NCBI GenBank assembly: GCA_000146045.2
Contig: BK006945.2
Span: 64,001-128,000 of the forward strand
Source: TPA_inf: Saccharomyces
Lineage: Eukaryota
Reading direction: 5' to 3'
DNA length: 64,000 bases
This document shows, piece after piece, positions 23,403-41,347 of the stretch (the first letter of the stretch is position 1; each line of letters begins with the position of its first letter). Below the pieces are notes generated by a model that did no database searches, was not told the DNA's origin, and worked only from the letters and a program-made list of their open reading frames with translations. A program made the position numbers and the translations under genes.

Positions 23403-24155
23403 ATGATAAACACAGGAAGAAGCAGGAATTCAGTACTGCTGGCACACAGATTCCTTTCAACTGGAGGATTTTGGCGAGGCGGTACGAATGGCACAATGTC
23501 TCGCACAATCAACAACGTAAATCCTTTCAAATTAAAATTCATACCGAAGACAGTGCCCGCAGCTGCAGACTCTGTCTCTCCAGATAGTCAACGTCCAGGT
23601 AAGAAGCCCTTCAAATTCATAGTTTCCAATCAGAGCAAGAGTAGCAAGGCTTCTAAAAGCCCGAAGTGGTCGAGCTACGCATTCCCTTCGCGTGAGACCA
23701 TCAAATCTCATGAGGAGGCCATCAAGAAGCAGAATAAAGCTATAGACGAGCAAATAGCTGCTGCAGTATCCAAGAATGACTGCTCTTGCACAGAACCTCC
23801 CAAGAAAAGAAAGAGGAAATTGAGACCAAGAAAGGCGCTGATCACCCTGAGTCCGAAGGCAATCAAGCATTTAAGGGCACTGCTAGCTCAGCCGGAACCT
23901 AAATTGATTAGAGTTAGCGCTAGAAACCGTGGATGTTCAGGACTAACGTACGATCTACAATATATCACCGAGCCGGGGAAATTCGATGAGGTAGTAGAAC
24001 AAGATGGCGTTAAAATTGTCATCGATTCAAAGGCGTTATTCAGCATCATTGGAAGTGAAATGGACTGGATCGACGACAAGTTGGCCTCTAAGTTTGTCTT
24101 CAAGAATCCAAACTCCAAGGGCACATGCGGTTGTGGCGAGAGTTTCATGGTTTAA
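23403..24155 (+). CDS. ISA1: Mitochondrial Fe-S cluster assembly protein, HesB/IscA family, 250 aa
   Basis: The ORF is 250 aa and the C-terminus carries the IscA signature (GCGESF). Length matches ISA1. Confidence 0.9.
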   Translation: MINTGRSRNSVLLAHRFLSTGGFWRGGTNGTMSRTINNVNPFKLKFIPKTVPAAADSVSPDSQRPGKKPFKFIVSNQSKSSKASKSPKWSSYAFPSRETIKSHEEAIKKQNKAIDEQIAAAVSKNDCSCTEPPKKRKRKLRPRKALITLSPKAIKHLRALLAQPEPKLIRVSARNRGCSGLTYDLQYITEPGKFDEVVEQDGVKIVIDSKALFSIIGSEMDWIDDKLASKFVFKNPNSKGTCGCGESFMV

Positions 24156-24622: not shown

Positions 24623-27349
24623 ATGAACGACCAAACGCAATTTACAGAAAGGGCTCTAACGATTTTGACGTTGGCTCAAAAATTGGCTTCGGATCATCAA
24701 CATCCACAATTACAACCTATACATATTCTAGCTGCCTTCATTGAAACGCCAGAAGATGGATCAGTCCCTTACCTACAGAATCTAATTGAGAAGGGCCGTT
24801 ACGACTATGATCTTTTCAAGAAAGTGGTTAATAGAAATCTAGTAAGAATTCCTCAACAGCAACCTGCACCTGCGGAGATAACTCCAAGTTATGCTTTGGG
24901 GAAAGTCCTTCAAGACGCTGCTAAGATTCAAAAACAACAGAAGGACTCATTTATAGCGCAAGACCATATATTGTTTGCTCTATTCAATGATTCGTCTATT
25001 CAGCAAATATTTAAGGAAGCTCAAGTAGATATTGAGGCCATCAAGCAACAAGCTCTTGAACTTCGTGGTAACACTAGAATTGACTCTCGTGGCGCTGATA
25101 CGAACACACCTTTGGAATATTTATCAAAGTACGCCATTGATATGACTGAGCAGGCTCGTCAAGGTAAACTTGACCCTGTCATCGGCCGTGAAGAAGAAAT
25201 AAGAAGCACTATTAGAGTTTTAGCAAGAAGAATTAAGTCCAACCCATGTTTAATTGGTGAGCCAGGTATCGGTAAGACCGCTATTATTGAAGGTGTTGCT
25301 CAAAGAATCATTGACGATGACGTTCCCACTATCTTACAAGGCGCTAAATTGTTCAGTCTAGATTTGGCCGCATTAACCGCAGGTGCTAAATACAAAGGTG
25401 ATTTCGAAGAAAGATTCAAAGGTGTTTTGAAGGAAATCGAAGAATCAAAGACTCTAATTGTGTTATTCATTGATGAAATTCACATGTTAATGGGTAATGG
25501 TAAGGACGACGCTGCTAACATCTTGAAGCCAGCTTTGTCCAGAGGCCAATTGAAGGTCATCGGTGCCACCACCAATAACGAATATAGATCTATTGTGGAA
25601 AAGGATGGTGCCTTTGAAAGAAGATTCCAGAAAATTGAAGTCGCTGAACCAAGTGTGAGACAAACAGTGGCCATATTGAGAGGTCTGCAACCAAAGTATG
25701 AAATACATCATGGTGTAAGGATTCTGGATAGCGCCTTAGTCACTGCTGCTCAATTAGCCAAGCGTTACTTGCCATATAGAAGATTGCCAGATTCTGCTTT
25801 GGATTTAGTTGATATTTCTTGTGCTGGTGTCGCCGTCGCAAGAGATTCTAAGCCAGAAGAATTGGATTCCAAGGAACGTCAATTGCAATTGATTCAAGTA
25901 GAGATAAAAGCTCTAGAGAGAGATGAAGATGCCGACTCCACCACTAAAGATAGATTAAAGTTAGCTAGGCAGAAGGAAGCTTCATTGCAAGAAGAATTGG
26001 AACCTCTAAGACAACGTTACAATGAAGAAAAGCATGGCCATGAAGAATTGACACAAGCTAAAAAGAAATTGGATGAACTGGAAAACAAGGCCCTTGATGC
26101 TGAACGTAGATATGATACTGCTACCGCCGCTGATTTAAGGTACTTCGCCATCCCAGATATCAAAAAGCAAATCGAAAAGCTTGAAGATCAGGTTGCTGAG
26201 GAAGAGAGACGTGCTGGTGCCAACTCCATGATCCAAAATGTGGTCGATTCAGACACCATTTCTGAAACAGCTGCAAGATTGACTGGTATCCCTGTTAAGA
26301 AGTTGTCAGAATCTGAAAATGAAAAATTGATTCATATGGAACGTGACTTATCATCTGAAGTCGTGGGCCAAATGGATGCCATTAAAGCTGTTTCCAATGC
26401 CGTTAGATTGTCTAGATCAGGTTTAGCTAATCCAAGGCAACCAGCATCCTTCTTATTTTTAGGTTTGTCCGGTTCCGGTAAAACTGAATTGGCTAAAAAA
26501 GTTGCTGGATTTTTGTTTAATGATGAGGACATGATGATCAGGGTCGATTGTTCTGAATTAAGCGAGAAGTATGCGGTCTCTAAGTTGTTGGGTACCACGG
26601 CAGGTTATGTCGGGTACGATGAAGGTGGCTTTTTAACTAACCAACTGCAATACAAACCATACTCCGTTTTGTTATTCGATGAAGTAGAAAAGGCACATCC
26701 TGATGTTTTGACTGTCATGCTACAAATGTTGGATGACGGTAGAATTACTTCTGGTCAAGGTAAGACGATCGACTGTTCCAATTGTATTGTCATCATGACT
26801 TCCAATCTAGGTGCTGAATTTATCAATTCTCAACAAGGATCAAAGATCCAAGAATCTACCAAGAATTTGGTCATGGGTGCTGTTAGGCAACATTTCAGAC
26901 CAGAATTTTTGAACAGAATTTCTAGTATAGTCATTTTCAACAAGCTATCTAGAAAAGCTATTCATAAGATCGTGGATATTCGTTTGAAGGAAATTGAAGA
27001 GAGATTCGAGCAAAATGATAAACATTACAAGTTGAATTTAACTCAAGAGGCCAAGGACTTCTTGGCCAAATATGGTTATTCCGATGATATGGGTGCACGT
27101 CCACTGAACAGGTTAATTCAAAACGAAATTTTGAACAAACTGGCACTAAGGATCTTAAAGAATGAAATCAAGGATAAGGAAACTGTCAATGTCGTCTTGA
27201 AGAAGGGTAAATCTCGTGATGAAAATGTTCCTGAGGAAGCTGAAGAATGTCTGGAAGTTCTACCAAATCACGAAGCTACTATAGGGGCTGACACGTTAGG
27301 TGATGACGATAATGAGGACAGTATGGAAATTGATGATGACCTAGATTAA
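24623..27349 (+). CDS. HSP104: Hsp100/ClpB-family protein disaggregase with two AAA+ domains, 908 aa
   Basis: The ORF is 908 aa. It has two Walker A motifs ([16 protein letters not shown]) and a coiled-coil M-domain. It matches HSP104 exactly. Confidence 0.97.
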
Positions 27350-27934
27350 TTTAATATAGTGTGATTTTTAAAAACTTTCGAACAAGAATCAGTAATATAA
27401 TATATATAATTAATAAAACTAATGGAATTTGTTTAATTGAACTTGACACCCGAGCAAAAGAGCTCACATTTTAACGTTTAGTTCATCTTGCTGTGAATAA
27501 TCTAAAAGTAAACAATGGACAAAAAAGTCCACTGGACGTCAAATCTTTTTTTATTGTATTTGGGACATATGGCGTTGATAACTAAAGTTTAAAGGAAGTA
27601 ATAAGTGAAGGTTAAATCTGGACCTCTTTACTTTCATATTAGAAGTATAAAACACACGCGGATTGGTCCATTATTAGAATACGGGTACTACAATAATGGT
27701 TTTGATAGTTACTGTACATTTGAATGTAGCGACTCATATGACTCATATATATGACTACCAAATCATGTTAAAATTAGTATATCTTTAACTTAGACTTCAG
27801 TACTATCTGAACTGCACGTTTAAATTTTTACCATAGCAGTTCATGTAATATTAATAATCACTTGTGCCAATATAATGTTACAGCGAACATTTTTCCATGC
27901 GCTTGGAAAATTGAATGATAGAAAATTCGAACAG

Positions 27935-28049
27935 CGATGATTTCCAACGATGTAATCCATTAAGATGATTGTTAGAATTTCTATTGTTGCAGAGGTCATA
28001 TGATATTAAGAACACAGCACAATATATTAAAATTTCTTCTCGAGGATAT
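27935..28049 (-). mobile_element. Degenerate older Ty1/Ty2 delta LTR, 3' part, interrupted by a younger delta insertion
   Basis: The segment ...attgttagaatttctattgtt...atatattaaaatttcttctcgaggatat aligns, with divergence, to the delta internal segment ...attgttgggattccattgtt...atatactagaagttctcctcgaggatat. The same LTR continues at 28382. Confidence 0.45.
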
Positions 28050-28381
28050 TGAGAAATGGGTGAATTTTGAGGTAATTGTTGGGATTCCATTGTTAATAAG
28101 GGCTATAATATTAGGTATACAGAATATACTAGATGTTCTCCTCGAGGATCTACGAATCCTCATAATGGAATCAATATTTCTATATACTAATATTACGATT
28201 ATCCCTCATTCCGTTTTATATGTTTCATTATCTTATTACATTATCAATCCTTTCACTACAGCTTCCTCTAACCTCGATGACAGCTTCTCATAACCTATGT
28301 CATCATCTAACACCGTATATGATAATATAGTGATAGTTATAACTATTAGTTGATAGACGATAGTGGATTTTTATTCCAACA
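28050..28381 (-). mobile_element. Solo Ty1/Ty2 delta LTR, 332 bp, flanked by a 5-bp target-site duplication GATAT
   Basis: The reverse complement begins TGTTGGAATAAAAATCCACTATCGTCTATCAACTAATAGTTATA... and ends ...CATTTCTCA. Internal delta segments such as ttctcctcgaggat and ctaatattacgattat(t/c)cctcattccgttttatatgtttcattat are present. GATAT occurs immediately on both sides, at 28045-28049 and 28382-28386. Confidence 0.85.
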
Positions 28382-28480
28382 GATATAAGAATTACAAAAA
28401 GAGAACTGTTATTTCTACATAATAATATTACGATTAGTACTCCTTTTATATGTTTCTTTATCCATTTACATTATCAATCC
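28382..28480 (-). mobile_element. Degenerate older delta LTR, continuation of 27935..28049, truncated at its 5' end
   Basis: The segment gatataagaattac...atttctacataataatattacgattagtactccttttatatgtttctttatccatttacattatcaatcc aligns to delta ...gatataggaatcctc...atttctacatactaatattacgattattcctcattccgttttatatgtttat...cattatcaatcc. It ends about 67 bp upstream of the tRNA. Confidence 0.5.
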
Positions 28481-28547
28481 TGATTAAAATTCCCACGAAC
28501 CCCCAGTACTAGATTGTTCATAATGGATCAAGTTCACAAGTTAATAA

Positions 28548-28650
28548 GGGCGTGTGGTCTAGTGGTATGATTCTCGCTTTGGGCGACTTCCTGACTAAAC
28601 AGGAAGACAAAGCATGCGAGAGGCCCTGGGTTCAATTCCCAGCTCGCCCC
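28548..28650 (+). tRNA. tRNA-Pro (anticodon UGG) with a 31-nt intron 3' of the anticodon
   Basis: The 5' exon is GGGCGTGTGGTCTAGTGGTATGATTCTCGCTTTGGG and the 3' exon is TGCGAGAGGCCCTGGGTTCAATTCCCAGCTCGCCCC. Together they form the yeast tRNA-Pro(UGG) cloverleaf, with the A-box TGGTCTAGTGG and B-box GGTTCAATTCC. A T-rich Pol III terminator (TTTATTTTCTTTTTTT) follows. Confidence 0.95.
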
Positions 28651-31565: not shown

Positions 31566-32870
31566 TTAATCAACTTCTTCGACAGTTGGACCTTCAGCTT
31601 CTGGAGCTGGAGGAGCACCACCTGGGAAACCACCTGGAGCTGCGCCTTCTGGAGCACCACCAGCTTGGTACAATTTAGACATGATTGGGTTGGCAACCTC
31701 TTGCAATTCCTTCAATTGGTCATCGAATTCTTCCTTGGTAGCAGTGGTGTTGCTGTCTAACCAAGCAATAGTTTCTTCAGCCTTCTTAGTGACAGCGTCC
31801 TTGTCAGCTTGCTCTAGCTTGTCACCAGCTTCAGAAATGGTGTTCTTCAAAGAGTAAGCAATGGATTCCAATTGGTTCTTGGAAGCAATTCTTTGAGATT
31901 CCTTTTCATCTTCTTCCTTGAATTTTTCGGCTTCAGCAACCATCTTTTCGATATCTTCCTTGGACAATCTACCCTTGTCGTTGGTAATAGTGATCTTGTT
32001 AGACTTACCAGTACCCTTTTCGACGGCGGAAACATTCAAAATACCGTTAGAGTCGACATCGAAAGTGACTTCAATTTGTGGGACACCTCTTGGAGCTGGT
32101 GGAATACCACTCAATTCGAACTTACCCAACAAGTTGTTGTCCTTAGTCTTGGCTCTTTCACCTTCAAAGACTTGAATCAAGACACCTGGTTGGTTGTCAG
32201 CATAAGTAGAGAAAACTTCGGATTTCTTAGTTGGAATGGTAGAGTTTCTTGGAATCAACTTGGTCATGACACCACCAGCAGTTTCAATACCCAAGGATAA
32301 TGGAGCGACATCCAACAACAATAGATCTTGAGTCTTGGAAGATTCGTCACCAGTCAAAATAGCAGCTTGAACAGCAGCACCGTAAGCAACAGCTTCATCT
32401 GGGTTGATAGATCTGTTTGGTTCCTTACCGTTGAAGTAGTCAGTGACCAATTTTTGGACCTTTGGAATTCTGGTAGAACCACCGACCAAGACAATTTCAT
32501 CGACTTGAGATTTATCCAATTTAGCATCTCTCAAGACCTTTTCAACTGGGTCCAAAGTAGATCTGAACAAGTCAGCACACAATTCTTCGAATCTGGCTCT
32601 GGTGATGGAAGTGTAGAAATCGATACCTTCGAACAAAGAGTCAATTTCAACGGAAGTTTGAGCGGAGGAAGACAAAGTTCTCTTGGCTCTTTCACAAGCA
32701 GTTCTTAATCTTCTCAAAGCTCTTTGGTTGGTAGACAAGTCCTTCTTGTTCTTTCTCTTGAATTCTTGGATGAAGTGGTTGACCAATCTGTTGTCAAAAT
32801 CTTCACCACCCAAATGGGTGTCACCAGCGGTGGCCTTAACTTCAAAGATACCGTCTTCAATGGACAACAA

Positions 32871-32903
<33 letters not shown>

Positions 32904-33485
32904 AATCAAGACGTGTTCTTCCTTACCCTTCTTGTCCAAACCGTAAGCAATGGCAGCGGCGGTAGGTTCGTTAATAATACGCAAGACATTCAAACCAGCA
33001 ATGGTACCAGCATCCTTGGTAGCTTGTCTTTGAGAATCGTTGAAGTAAGCTGGGACAGTGACGACAGCGTCATTGACCTTGGCACCCAAGTAAGATTCGG
33101 CAGTTTCCTTCATCTTACCCAAGACCATGGAGGAGATTTGTTCTGGGGTAAAGTTCTTGGTTTCACCCTTAAATTCAACTTGAATTTGTGGCTTACCGTC
33201 AACATCGATCAACTTGAATGGGAAGTGCTTCATATCACCTTGGACTTCTGGGTCATTGAAGTTTCTACCGATCAAACGCTTAGCGTCGAAAACAGTGTTA
33301 GCTGGGTTCATAGCAGCTTGGTTCTTAGCAGCGTCACCAATCAATCTTTCAGTATCAGTGAAACCAACGAAAGATGGAGTGGTTCTGTTACCTTGGTCGT
33401 TGGCAATAATGTCAACACGATCATTAGAGAAGTGAGCAACACAGGAGTAGGTAGTACCTAAATCAATACCGACAGCTTTAGACAT
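31566..33485 (-). CDS. SSA2: Cytosolic Hsp70 chaperone, 639 aa
   Basis: The ORF is 639 aa with Hsp70 signatures ([16 protein letters not shown]) and a GGAP-rich C-terminus ending EEVD. It matches SSA2. The many ORFs on the opposite strand are codon-bias artefacts. Confidence 0.97.
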
Positions 33486-36946: not shown

Positions 36947-39900
36947 ATGGGTACGTCAAGCGAGGTTTCTCTCGCACATCATAGAGATATCTTCCATTAC
37001 TACGTCTCACTGAAGACTTTTTTCGAGGTGACTGGCGAAAATCGTGACAGGTCAAATTCGACACGAGCTCAAAAGGCCAGAGCCAAGCTGTTGAAGCTAT
37101 CTTCTTCGCAATTTTACGAGCTGAGTACAGACGTGTCCGATGAGCTGCAGAGGAGAATCGGTGAAGATGCTAACCAACCAGATTACCTTTTGCCGAAGGC
37201 AAATTTCCACATGAAAAGGAACCAGGCTAGACAGAAACTGGCCAATCTATCACAAACTCGATTTAATGATTTGTTGGACGATATCCTTTTTGAGATCAAG
37301 AGAAGAGGGTTCGACAAGGATTTGGATGCTCCACGGCCCCCATTACCGCAGCCGATGAAACAAGAGGTCAGCAAAGACAGCGATGATACTGCAAGAACAT
37401 CCACAAATTCTTCCTCTGTGACTCAAGTAGCTCCAAACGTCTCCGTACAACCTTCTTTGGTCATTCCTAAGATGGCATCTATCGATTGGTCTTCTGAGGA
37501 AGAAGAAGAGGAGCAAGTAAAGGAGAAGCCAAATGAACCGGAGGGAAAACAAACAAGCATGGATGAAAAGAAAGAGGCTAAACCTGCTCTAAACCCCATA
37601 GTTACAGATTCTGATCTGCCTGACTCCCAAGTGCTCGCTCGTGATATCACATCAATGGCAAGGACTCCAACAACGACGCATAAAAATTACTGGGACGTTA
37701 ATGATTCTCCAATTATCAAGGTAGATAAAGATATCGATAACGAAAAGGGTCCCGAACAGTTGAAGAGCCCTGAAGTACAACGGGCTGAGAACAATAACCC
37801 TAACTCAGAGATGGAAGACAAGGTTAAAGAACTGACTGATTTAAACAGCGACTTACATTTGCAAATTGAAGATTTGAATGCTAAGTTAGCATCTTTAACC
37901 AGCGAGAAGGAAAAGGAGAAGAAGGAAGAGAAGGAGGAAAAAGAAAAGGAAAAGAACTTAAAGATTAACTACACCATTGATGAAAGTTTTCAGAAAGAAT
38001 TGCTGTCATTAAACTCTCAAATCGGTGAATTATCAATTGAGAATGAAAATTTGAAGCAGAAAATTTCAGAATTCGAACTGCATCAAAAAAAGAATGACAA
38101 CCATAATGATTTGAAAATCACTGACGGTTTTATTAGCAAGTACTCTTCTGCCGATGGGCTCATTCCAGCTCAATACATCTTAAACGCTAACAACTTGATA
38201 ATTCAATTTACTACTAGGCTTTCCGCAGTACCCATAGGCGACTCCACGGCAATTTCCCATCAAATTGGCGAAGAGTTATTTCAAATATTATCCCAGTTAT
38301 CGAACCTAATCTCCCAGCTATTACTATCGGCCGACCTATTACAGTACAAAGATCAGGTCATTTTACTGAAGGCATCATTATCGCATGCGATCACATCGAT
38401 AAGATATTTCTCTGTTTACGGTCCCGTATTAATTCCGAAAATAACTGTGCAAGCTGCTGTTTCAGAGGTTTGTTTTGCCATGTGTAATCTAATTGATTCA
38501 GCGAAAATAAAATCCGATTCAAATGGTGAGAGCACCACCTCTAATGAAGGTAACCGACAGGTATTAGAATATTCTTCACCAACTGCTACCACCCCAATGA
38601 CGCCAACTTTCCCCTCGACTTCTGGAATAAATATGAAGAAGGGGTTTATAAACCCAAGAAAACCAGCATCTTTCTTGAATGATGTGGAGGAAGAAGAATC
38701 TCCAGTCAAGCCATTGAAAATTACACAAAAGGCAATTAACAGTCCGATCATAAGACCGTCATCGTCTAATGGAGTTCCAACAACCTCAAGAAAACCTTCA
38801 GGAACGGGGCTATTTAGTTTAATGATTGATTCATCAATTGCTAAGAATAGCTCCCATAAAGAGGATAATGATAAATATGTCTCGCCCATAAAGGCAGTAA
38901 CATCGGCCTCCAATTCTGCAAGTAGCAATATTTCCGAAATTCCTAAACTAACACTACCTCCACAAGCCAAAATCGGTACTGTTATTCCACCGTCAGAGAA
39001 TCAAGTTCCCAATATTAAAATCGAGAATACAGAAGAGGATAATAAAAGGAGTGACATAACAAATGAAATCTCTGTTAAACCAACTTCTAGCATTGCTGAT
39101 AAACTGAAACAATTTGAGCAAAGTTCCGAAAAGAAATCATCACCAAAGGAAAATCCTATAGCAAAAGAAGAAATGGATTCAAAACCAAAACTATCCAATA
39201 AATTTATCACTTCAATGAATGATGTGTCCACAGATGATTCAAGCTCTGATGGTAACGAAAATGACGATGCAGACGATGATGATGATTTTACCTATATGGC
39301 ATTGAAACAAACAATGAAGAGAGAAGGTTCAAAAATTGAAAAAAATAATGACAGCAAACTACCTGCAAATATAGTGGAACTTGATTTACATGAGTCACCG
39401 GAGTCCGTGAAGATTGAATCTCCTGAATCGATAAAGGAAATCACGTCATCTGAAATGTCTTCAGAAATGCCAAGTAGTTCGCTGCCTAAGAGATTAGTAG
39501 AGGATGTTGAGCCTTCAGAAATGCCAGAGAAGGGCGCATCTGTAGAATCAGTCAGGAAGAAAAATTTTCAAGAACCACTTGGTAATGTCGAATCTCCGGA
39601 TATGACGCAGAAGGTCAAGTCTTTGGGTATGACAGGAAAGGCTGTAGGCCCAGAATCAGATAGTAGGGTCGAATCTCCGGGCATGACAGGACAGATTAAA
39701 TCTTTGAATATGGCAGGAAAAGTTGTAGGCCCAGAAGCAGATAGTAGGGTCGAATCTCCGGGCATGAAAGAGCAGATTAAGTCTTTGGGTATGACAGGAA
39801 AAATTACAGCTCAAGAATCAATCAAGTCCCCGGAAGCGGCTAGGAAGTTGGCGTCATCAGGAGAAGTTGACAAAATTGAATCTCCAAGAATGGTAAGGGA

Positions 39901-41347
39901 AAGCGAGTCCTTGGAGGCAGTAGGCAATACTATCCCCTCAAACATGACAGTGAAAATGGAATCCCCAAATTTAAAGGGAAATACTGTGTCTGAACCTCAA
40001 GAAATAAGGAGAGACATTGCCTCCTCAGAGCCGATAGAGAATGTTGACCCCCCAAAAGTACTAAAAAAGATTGTCTTTCCAAAGGCTGTTAATAGAACTG
40101 GATCACCAAAATCAGTCGAAAAGACTCCATCTTCAGCTACACTGAAAAAGAGCGGGCTCCCAGAACCGAATAGCCAAATTGTTTCTCCTGAATTGGCAAA
40201 AAATTCACCTCTAGCACCGATAAAGAAAAATGTCGAGTTACGAGAAACTAATAAACCACATACTGAGACTATCACTTCTGTGGAACCAACAAACAAGGAT
40301 GCCAATACTTCTTGGAGAGACGCCGACTTAAACCGTACGATCAAACGAGAGGAGGAGGACGAAGATTTTGATAGAGTGAACCACAATATCCAGATCACTG
40401 GTGCATATACGAAAACTGGAAAAATTGATTATCATAAAATACCTGTTGATCGTAAAGCAAAAAGCGAAGCAGAAGTGCATACTTCCGAGGAAGATATTGA
40501 TGAATCAAATAATGTTAATGGAAAAAGAGCTGATGCCCAAATACACATCACTGAAAGAAAGCATGCTTTCGTAAATCCAACTGAAAATTCACAGGTAAAA
40601 AAGACGAGCCACTCACCATTTTTAAACAGTAAACCGGTTCAATACGAGAACTCAGAGTCGAACGGCGGCATTAACAACCACATAAAGATAAAAAATACTG
40701 GAGAAACTACGGCACATGACGAGAAACATTATAGTGATGATGATGATTCTAGCTATCAATTTGTTCCCATGAAACATGAAGAACAAGAACAAGAACAAAA
40801 CAGAAGTGAGGAAGAGGAAAGTGAAGATGACGATGAAGAGGAAGAAGACAGTGATTTTGATGTGGATACATTTGACATTGAAAATCCGGATAATACACTA
40901 TCAGAGTTACTATTGTATTTAGAACATCAAACAATGGACGTCATATCCACGATTCAATCGCTTTTGACATCGATCAAGAAACCACAGGTGACGAAGGGTA
41001 ATTTGAGGGGAGAATCGAATGCAATCAACCAAGTCATAGGTCAAATGGTGGACGCTACTAGCATATCAATGGAGCAAAGCAGAAATGCCAATTTGAAGAA
41101 ACACGGTGATTGGGTGGTGCAAAGTCTAAGAGACTGTTCGCGTAGAATGACAATTTTGTGCCAATTAACTGGCGATGGAATACTAGCGAAGGAAAAGAGC
41201 GATCAAGATTATGCTGACAAAAACTTCAAACAGCGGTTGGCAGGGATTGCGTTTGATGTTGCCAAATGTACAAAGGAGCTGGTAAAAACTGTAGAAGAGG
41301 CAAGTTTGAAGGACGAAATAAATTATTTGAATTCGAAGTTGAAGTAA
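36947..41347 (+). CDS. SPA2: Polarisome scaffold protein, 1466 aa
   Basis: The ORF is 1466 aa. It has an N-terminal Spa2-homology domain, coiled coils, a central internal repeat region and a C-terminal conserved domain. Length matches SPA2. Confidence 0.93.
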   Translation: MGTSSEVSLAHHRDIFHYYVSLKTFFEVTGENRDRSNSTRAQKARAKLLKLSSSQFYELSTDVSDELQRRIGEDANQPDYLLPKANFHMKRNQARQKLANLSQTRFNDLLDDILFEIKRRGFDKDLDAPRPPLPQPMKQEVSKDSDDTARTSTNSSSVTQVAPNVSVQPSLVIPKMASIDWSSEEEEEEQVKEKPNEPEGKQTSMDEKKEAKPALNPIVTDSDLPDSQVLARDITSMARTPTTTHKNYWDVNDSPIIKVDKDIDNEKGPEQLKSPEVQRAENNNPNSEMEDKVKELTDLNSDLHLQIEDLNAKLASLTSEKEKEKKEEKEEKEKEKNLKINYTIDESFQKELLSLNSQIGELSIENENLKQKISEFELHQKKNDNHNDLKITDGFISKYSSADGLIPAQYILNANNLIIQFTTRLSAVPIGDSTAISHQIGEELFQILSQLSNLISQLLLSADLLQYKDQVILLKASLSHAITSIRYFSVYGPVLIPKITVQAAVSEVCFAMCNLIDSAKIKSDSNGESTTSNEGNRQVLEYSSPTATTPMTPTFPSTSGINMKKGFINPRKPASFLNDVEEEESPVKPLKITQKAINSPIIRPSSSNGVPTTSRKPSGTGLFSLMIDSSIAKNSSHKEDNDKYVSPIKAVTSASNSASSNISEIPKLTLPPQAKIGTVIPPSENQVPNIKIENTEEDNKRSDITNEISVKPTSSIADKLKQFEQSSEKKSSPKENPIAKEEMDSKPKLSNKFITSMNDVSTDDSSSDGNENDDADDDDDFTYMALKQTMKREGSKIEKNNDSKLPANIVELDLHESPESVKIESPESIKEITSSEMSSEMPSSSLPKRLVEDVEPSEMPEKGASVESVRKKNFQEPLGNVESPDMTQKVKSLGMTGKAVGPESDSRVESPGMTGQIKSLNMAGKVVGPEADSRVESPGMKEQIKSLGMTGKITAQESIKSPEAARKLASSGEVDKIESPRMVRESESLEAVGNTIPSNMTVKMESPNLKGNTVSEPQEIRRDIASSEPIENVDPPKVLKKIVFPKAVNRTGSPKSVEKTPSSATLKKSGLPEPNSQIVSPELAKNSPLAPIKKNVELRETNKPHTETITSVEPTNKDANTSWRDADLNRTIKREEEDEDFDRVNHNIQITGAYTKTGKIDYHKIPVDRKAKSEAEVHTSEEDIDESNNVNGKRADAQIHITERKHAFVNPTENSQVKKTSHSPFLNSKPVQYENSESNGGINNHIKIKNTGETTAHDEKHYSDDDDSSYQFVPMKHEEQEQEQNRSEEEESEDDDEEEEDSDFDVDTFDIENPDNTLSELLLYLEHQTMDVISTIQSLLTSIKKPQVTKGNLRGESNAINQVIGQMVDATSISMEQSRNANLKKHGDWVVQSLRDCSRRMTILCQLTGDGILAKEKSDQDYADKNFKQRLAGIAFDVAKCTKELVKTVEEASLKDEINYLNSKLK
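39587..39830 (+). repeat. About 3 copies of an 81-bp (27-aa) in-frame tandem repeat within SPA2
   Basis: The unit gtcgaatctccgg(a/g)(t/c)atgac...aa(g/a)tctttg(g/a)(g/a)tatg(a/g)caggaaa(g/a)g(c/t)tgtaggcccagaa(t/g)cagatagtaggg recurs at 39587, 39668 and 39749, with partial copies either side. It encodes ESPGMTGQIKSLxMxGKxVGPExDSRV. It explains the spurious minus-strand ORF 39568..39765. Confidence 0.85.

Follow-up and report, generated by a model that had tools for sequence, protein, structure and literature searches.

The DNA upstream of the proline tRNA gene tP(UGG)L of Saccharomyces cerevisiae contains a true nested LTR-in-LTR insertion. A complete Ty1 solo LTR lies within an older Ty1 LTR, which is split at one point, whose two parts are colinear and whose own sequence supplies the target-site duplication (TSD). 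We are highly confident that this arrangement is a fossil record of repeated Ty integration into the ~1-kb region upstream of tP(UGG)L, and that it has no function of its own. The nested LTRs are real and ordinary, and they are already known, since the inner LTR has been catalogued since 1998 (as YLLCdelta1) and the nesting since 2012. The window, i.e., the whole 64,000-nucleotide stretch that was analysed, belongs to the left arm of chromosome XII and carries the gene order UBI4, HSP104, SSA2. The features that the text refers to are as follows.

62-1207: polyubiquitin ORF of 381 aa, with a five-fold 228-nt tandem repeat inside
23403-24155: ISA1 ORF of 250 aa, identical to NP_013073.1 (S. cerevisiae S288C)
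24623-27349: ClpB/Hsp104-type ORF of 908 aa
27574-27823 (weakly to ~27898), minus strand: Ty4 (tau) solo-LTR relic, chrXII_s284, ~725-975 bp upstream of tRNA-Pro
27960-28049, minus strand: outer (older) Ty1 LTR, 3'-ward piece, ~Ty1-LTR positions 250-320, equal to chrXII_s285 91959-92048 (sacCer2)
28045-28049: left TSD copy, GATAT, part of the outer LTR sequence
28050-28381, minus strand: inner (younger) complete Ty1 solo LTR, YLLCdelta1, equal to chrXII_st147, 332 bp with TGTTGG...TCTCA ends
28382-28386: right TSD copy, GATAT, the same in all sequences compared
28382-28481, minus strand: outer Ty1 LTR, 5'-ward piece, ~Ty1-LTR positions 131-254, equal to chrXII_s285 92381-92480
28548-28650, plus strand: tRNA-Pro(UGG), tP(UGG)L, Rfam RF00005, 48.7 bits
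28584-28614: tRNA-Pro intron of 31 nt at the canonical position 37/38
31566-33485: Hsp70 ORF

Published sacCer2 coordinates equal the window coordinates + 64000 - 1. A BLAST search with delta found no other delta LTR copies in the rest of the 64-kb window.

The inner LTR was read beforehand, from the sequence only, as a near-full-length 332-bp delta with TGTTGG...TCTCA ends. This is borne out, and we can add that the element is on the minus strand. On the plus strand the sequence passes from ...CTCGAGGATAT into the first bases of the LTR, TGAGAAATGGG... (from 28050), and from its last bases, ...TTATTCCAACA (to 28381), into GATATAAGAATT... on the other side. As references we used the RepBase LTR sequences given in File S1 of Carr, Bensasson & Bergman 2012 (PMC3511429). 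Identities were taken from pairwise alignments to these published references, as a three-way MAFFT alignment that included the LTR from the assembly L008 misaligned the centre and gave misleading values. In global alignment, the inner LTR is 93.4% identical to TY1-LTR (309/331 matches, with 22 mismatches and 8 gap columns). The alignment runs from reference base 1 to base 338, and both termini are present. The global identity to TY2-LTR is 83.2%, and the two references are themselves 85% identical to each other. The TYA start context, ATGGAATCCCAACAATTA..., can be read in the 3' end of the inner LTR. Aligning the locus to Ty1 and Ty2 delta references, as the sequence-only reading had proposed, matched the inner LTR end to end and showed that the flanks are also delta-like.

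That the repeat family of the inner LTR is a family of retrotransposon LTRs is also confirmed without recourse to the literature. A related LTR, L008:9617-9949, aligns with the inner LTR over ~330 nt (~80% identity by BLAST, 84% in global alignment). Because a polypurine tract (PPT) and ORFs encoding RVT_2, rve, Pol_BBD and TYA domains lie next to it, the family to which the inner LTR belongs is identified as a retrotransposon LTR. For distinguishing Ty2 LTRs, Kim et al. reportedly also relied, in 1998, on a single-base deletion. This deletion is the Ty2 LTR diagnostic in Carr et al. 2012 (PMC3511429). Our own basis is overall identity, and by this measure both the inner and the outer LTR are assigned to the Ty1 lineage, not to Ty2; Carr et al. 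label both as TY1.

The flanks of the inner LTR had been read as one contiguous, more diverged delta, split exactly at the insertion, and this is what we find. When the left flank (27900-28049) was aligned alone and compared with dinucleotide shuffles, it gave z = 9.6 against the inner LTR and 8.5 against the independent L008 LTR. The right flank alone (28382-28547) gave 15.0 and 9.7, respectively, and control segments farther out on either side gave z ~0. The match of the right flank was also recovered by an unprompted repeat search (family D4). When the two flanks were joined with one GATAT kept (27960-28049 + 28387-28481), the alignment to the inner LTR was colinear and unbroken over the junction. 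Its score was 121, compared with 21.6 +/- 2.8 and a maximum of 34 for the shuffles. The outer core, covering Ty1 positions ~131-320, matches TY1-LTR at 151/177 positions (85%) with several indels, whereas the inner LTR over the same positions is 94% identical. In a comparison separate from this core figure, the outer core is closer to the Ty1 LTR (82%) than to the Ty2 LTR (78%). Weak similarity to delta runs left to ~27950 beyond the 3'-ward piece, and a weak tail right of the 5'-ward piece may reach 28523 (67% identity).

The outer element is a truncated fragment and falls short of a full solo LTR. It lacks 90-130 nt at its 5' end, and neither its termini, including the 3' ...TCTCA end, nor a TSD of its own is recognisable at the locus. 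As a full-length LTR would extend into the tRNA gene, the outer 5' part was removed by deletion or recombination. The relative order of the two insertions is set by the nesting itself. The divergence, which the sequence-only reading took to set the relative ages, agrees with this order (85% for the outer and 94% for the inner LTR) but is no proof of it. The two successive integrations of Ty1/Ty2-superfamily elements that were proposed earlier are upheld by the colinear flanks together with the TSD, and they match the published annotation.

The TSD consists of host LTR sequence. Reference positions 98-102 are both the last of the left flank and the first of the right flank, and therefore exactly five bases of the host LTR, GATAT, are duplicated. 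TY1-LTR itself reads GATAT at this position. By simple arithmetic, the probability of a chance 5/5 match at the local base composition is ~1/600. The TSD was previously called intact. This is correct for the window, which has GATAT on both sides, but not for the species, since the left copy reads GAT-T, with the A at 28048 lost, in 9 of the 11 other S. cerevisiae sequences. The perfect left GATAT is found only in the window and in L003. The perfect TSD is thus an S288C-type state, and the left copy is polymorphic.

The tRNA gene downstream of the nested LTRs is a proline tRNA gene with an intron. Removal of the intron leaves a 72-nt tRNA-Pro(TGG) according to ARAGORN. In its default mode, with no introns allowed, ARAGORN missed the intron-containing tRNA at 28548-28650. 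With introns allowed it called Ala(TGC), which we rejected because this call requires a non-canonical intron inside the anticodon and because G3:C70 excludes alanine identity. Its orthologues in S. mikatae and S. kudriavzevii received the same Ala miscall, and that in S. uvarum was called Pro(tgg) directly.

The inner LTR was inserted 161 bp upstream of tRNA-Pro, and the delta relics span 67 to ~600 bp upstream. Contacts between integrase and Pol III direct Ty1, Ty2 and Ty4 to the ~1 kb upstream of Pol III genes; the Ty1 integrase binds several Pol III subunits, Rpc40 among them (PMC5911963). The insertion site thus falls within the Ty1 target region of a Pol III gene that is presumably actively transcribed. 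These distances agree with the earlier view of the locus, which placed the LTRs 70-600 bp upstream and saw in them the Ty1 preference for DNA upstream of tRNA genes.

Variation within the species was followed in ten S. cerevisiae assemblies (L001-L010), which were found through an exact Hsp104 protein match, and in one metagenome contig (L011). A comparison among strains had been proposed earlier for the inner LTR. It occupies an identical position in 10/10 assemblies and in the metagenome contig, i.e., in all 11 other sequences. An empty-site allele, with an uninterrupted outer LTR and a single GATAT, was found in none of these 11. A metagenome scan gave 0 matches to the empty-site junction, and the filled-site control matched 1 contig only, so that the lack of matches carries no weight. 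The pre-insertion state described here is therefore a reconstruction and not an observation.

Three of the assemblies carry further changes within the inner LTR. In L008 (GCA_029990685.1), a full-length Ty2 on the minus strand (L008:9617-14727) lies inside YLLCdelta1 at the window equivalent of 28239/28240. It has an LTR with 97.6% identity to TY2-LTR and ORFs that hold RVT_2, rve and TYA domains. This Ty2 is a polymorphic third level of nesting that is present in some strains only. In L006 (GCA_000975795.2), the same left Ty2 junction is found (L006:9617-10005), with the element collapsed behind an N-gap. The right junction corresponds to window position 28359, and 119 bp of YLLCdelta1 (28240-28358) are missing. 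The flanks of this Ty2 are ATTAC on the left and GATAG on the right and share no TSD. The L006 junctions suggest two insertions followed by inter-element recombination. In L007 (GCA_029990945.1), 16 differences are clustered in ~50 bp inside the inner LTR (window 28253-28305). At 15 of these, L007 agrees with the Ty2 LTR, and nine are specific to Ty2. The tract is an apparent gene conversion from a Ty2-type LTR into YLLCdelta1, as judged from the pattern of these differences.

Other explanations of the flanks have to be weighed against nesting. They could be two unrelated truncated delta fragments that abut a later solo LTR, with the GATAT repeats being coincidental. The flanks are indeed short, with robust alignment over 90 and 100 nt, and diverged (85% to the Ty1 LTR), and an outer element that has neither ends nor its own TSD would fit such fragments. 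Against this, the two flanks are oriented alike and break at the same five reference positions, so that once joined they follow the Ty1 LTR colinearly. In addition, the repeat equals the GATAT that the Ty1 LTR itself has there, and REannotate joined both outer pieces independently. We therefore consider unrelated fragments to be extremely improbable. It could also be argued that, in intergenic DNA as AT-rich as this, the flanks resemble delta by chance alone. Lenient alignments of the tails (28482-28523 and left of 27960) give a weak identity of 67%, and these tails may be chance matches. For the outer core, this reading is refuted by the z values of 8.5-15 with controls at ~0, and by a joined score that far exceeds the shuffle maximum, which leaves it next to no probability.

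Ectopic recombination or gene conversion between dispersed deltas, and not insertion by integrase, could also be proposed as the origin of the arrangement. Delta conversion does occur at this locus, as the ~50-bp tract in L007 indicates with 15/16 differences Ty2-like, and the Ty2 junction in both L006 and L008 has no TSD. Conversion, however, swaps homologous positions, and it does not put a complete LTR, with exact ends and a 5-bp duplication, at a non-homologous point of another LTR. The inner LTR has both the TSD and complete TG...CA termini, and hence we think it most improbable that the inner LTR arose in this way. That the tRNA had instead moved into an LTR is excluded by its synteny in S. 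mikatae, S. kudriavzevii and S. uvarum.

A different question is whether the array is neutral. The loss of the outer 5' part could represent an unrecorded deletion or inter-element recombination that ended 25-67 bp from the tRNA start and became fixed. Taken together with four Ty relics or insertions in the same orientation, this could be a sign that the LTR array was kept for its effect on the upstream chromatin or expression context of tP(UGG)L or of the HSP104 3' region, and that it is not neutral debris. We regard this proposal as very unlikely. The reading of the locus as a record of repeated integration, with no function of its own, is the one that we favor.

We suggest that the record of integration was formed as follows. 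A Ty1-family element would have integrated in the minus orientation upstream of the tRNA gene and then decayed to the outer delta remnant. A second Ty1 then entered this outer LTR, 161 bp upstream of the tRNA. In doing so, a 5-bp staggered strand transfer by integrase duplicated the host GATAT, to which the TSD and the colinear flanks attest. Recombination between the LTRs of the second element probably removed its coding region and left the solo YLLCdelta1 within its TSD, since such events typically leave a solo LTR that keeps its TSD. The sequence-only reading had both elements reduced to solo LTRs in this manner. This stands for the inner LTR, which is complete with its TSD, but it cannot be claimed from the truncated fragment that is left of the outer one. 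Both relics then became fixed in the species, as their presence throughout the strains shows. The site is still a target, given the full-length Ty2 inside YLLCdelta1 in some strains. The known interaction of the Ty1 integrase with subunits of Pol III, Rpc40/AC40 among them, may explain the targeting itself.

As in maize, where intergenic clusters of nested LTR retrotransposons likewise hold younger elements inside older ones, the nesting gives the relative order. Unlike in the maize clusters, nesting in yeast is driven by the narrow Pol III-directed target region and involves mostly solo LTRs. Among the Ty1 solo deltas upstream of S. cerevisiae tRNAs, the inner LTR is alike in length, termini, 5-bp TSD, position and identity (93%). 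It shows no differences from these and is typical of the old ones ('inactive', fixed). Ty2 LTRs fall into the same superfamily, but the inner LTR is 83% identical to Ty2 vs 93% to Ty1.

The nesting was already annotated by Carr, Bensasson & Bergman 2012 (PLoS One 7:e50978, Files S2/S3; PMC3511429). In their annotation, chrXII_st147-_TY1, which is YLLCdelta1, spans sacCer2 92049-92380 and is described as 'REannotate_1-nested_LTR', solo, inactive and present in 27/27 SGRP strains. The outer element, chrXII_s285-_TY1, is given in two pieces and is solo, inactive and present in 28/28 scorable SGRP strains (PMC3511429). Insertions of the inactive clade are predominantly fixed, and 279 solo Ty1 LTRs are reported in S288C (PMC3511429). 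YLLCdelta1 within chrXII_s285 is the same object as ours in coordinates, minus orientation and nesting, with no substantive difference. A search of full-text literature for YLLCdelta/YLLWdelta names gave no match; YLLCdelta1 is named in the supplement of Carr et al. What we add to their annotation is an explicit reading of the TSD, with its variation among strains, the finding that the outer LTR is truncated, and additional strains and species.

Through ISA1 orthologues, we located the corresponding syntenic regions in S. mikatae, S. kudriavzevii and S. uvarum. The tRNA-Pro gene lies downstream of HSP104 in all three, and upstream of it each species has its own different set of Ty1/Ty2-like and Ty4-like LTR fragments. 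Since the gene is syntenic and the LTR sets differ among the three species, the tRNA-Pro gene is ancestral and the site has been targeted recurrently across the genus. In S. mikatae, a solo LTR (L012:15080-15411) is 95.6% identical to S. cerevisiae TY2-LTR over 321 nt. It is found among older Ty1/Ty2-like and Ty4-like fragments, and the tRNA-Pro orthologue is at L012 15585-15687. Ty2 is said to have been transferred from S. mikatae to S. cerevisiae, and this Ty2-like LTR would fit such a transfer. The minus-strand delta fragments of S. mikatae (L012:14350-14436) share no derived indels with the outer LTR, so that orthology between them is unsupported. In S. kudriavzevii and S. uvarum, the relics at tRNA-Pro are mostly Ty4-like.

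A Ty4 relic is also found in S. cerevisiae, farther upstream of the same tRNA gene. It aligns with positions 39-370 of the RepBase TY4-LTR at 77.5% identity, with a score of 109 and a shuffle maximum of 34. In the published annotation it is chrXII_s284-_TY4 (91573-91822 in sacCer2) and is fixed in 26/26 strains (Carr et al. 2012, PMC3511429).

The nested LTRs are a clean textbook case of Pol III-directed targeting, of the 5-bp duplication, of solo-LTR formation and of nesting as a relative clock. They have little importance beyond illustration, in what is the best-annotated eukaryotic genome. Their only practical value is that the TSD indel, the Ty2-type conversion tract and the polymorphic Ty2 could be used as strain-lineage markers for the HSP104-SSA2 interval.

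Two minor observations in the window concern its coding sequences. The 90% protein cluster that contains ISA1 also holds 908-aa Hsp104 sequences, and its representative is of Hsp104 length. This merger is probably a database artefact that stems from a fused ISA1-HSP104 gene model in some assembly. In addition, three tandem 81-nt (27-aa) repeats with 75% identity, unrelated to the nested LTRs, are present at 39571-39820. They lie within a 1466-aa ORF (36947-41347) that is probably SPA2, judging from the gene order.
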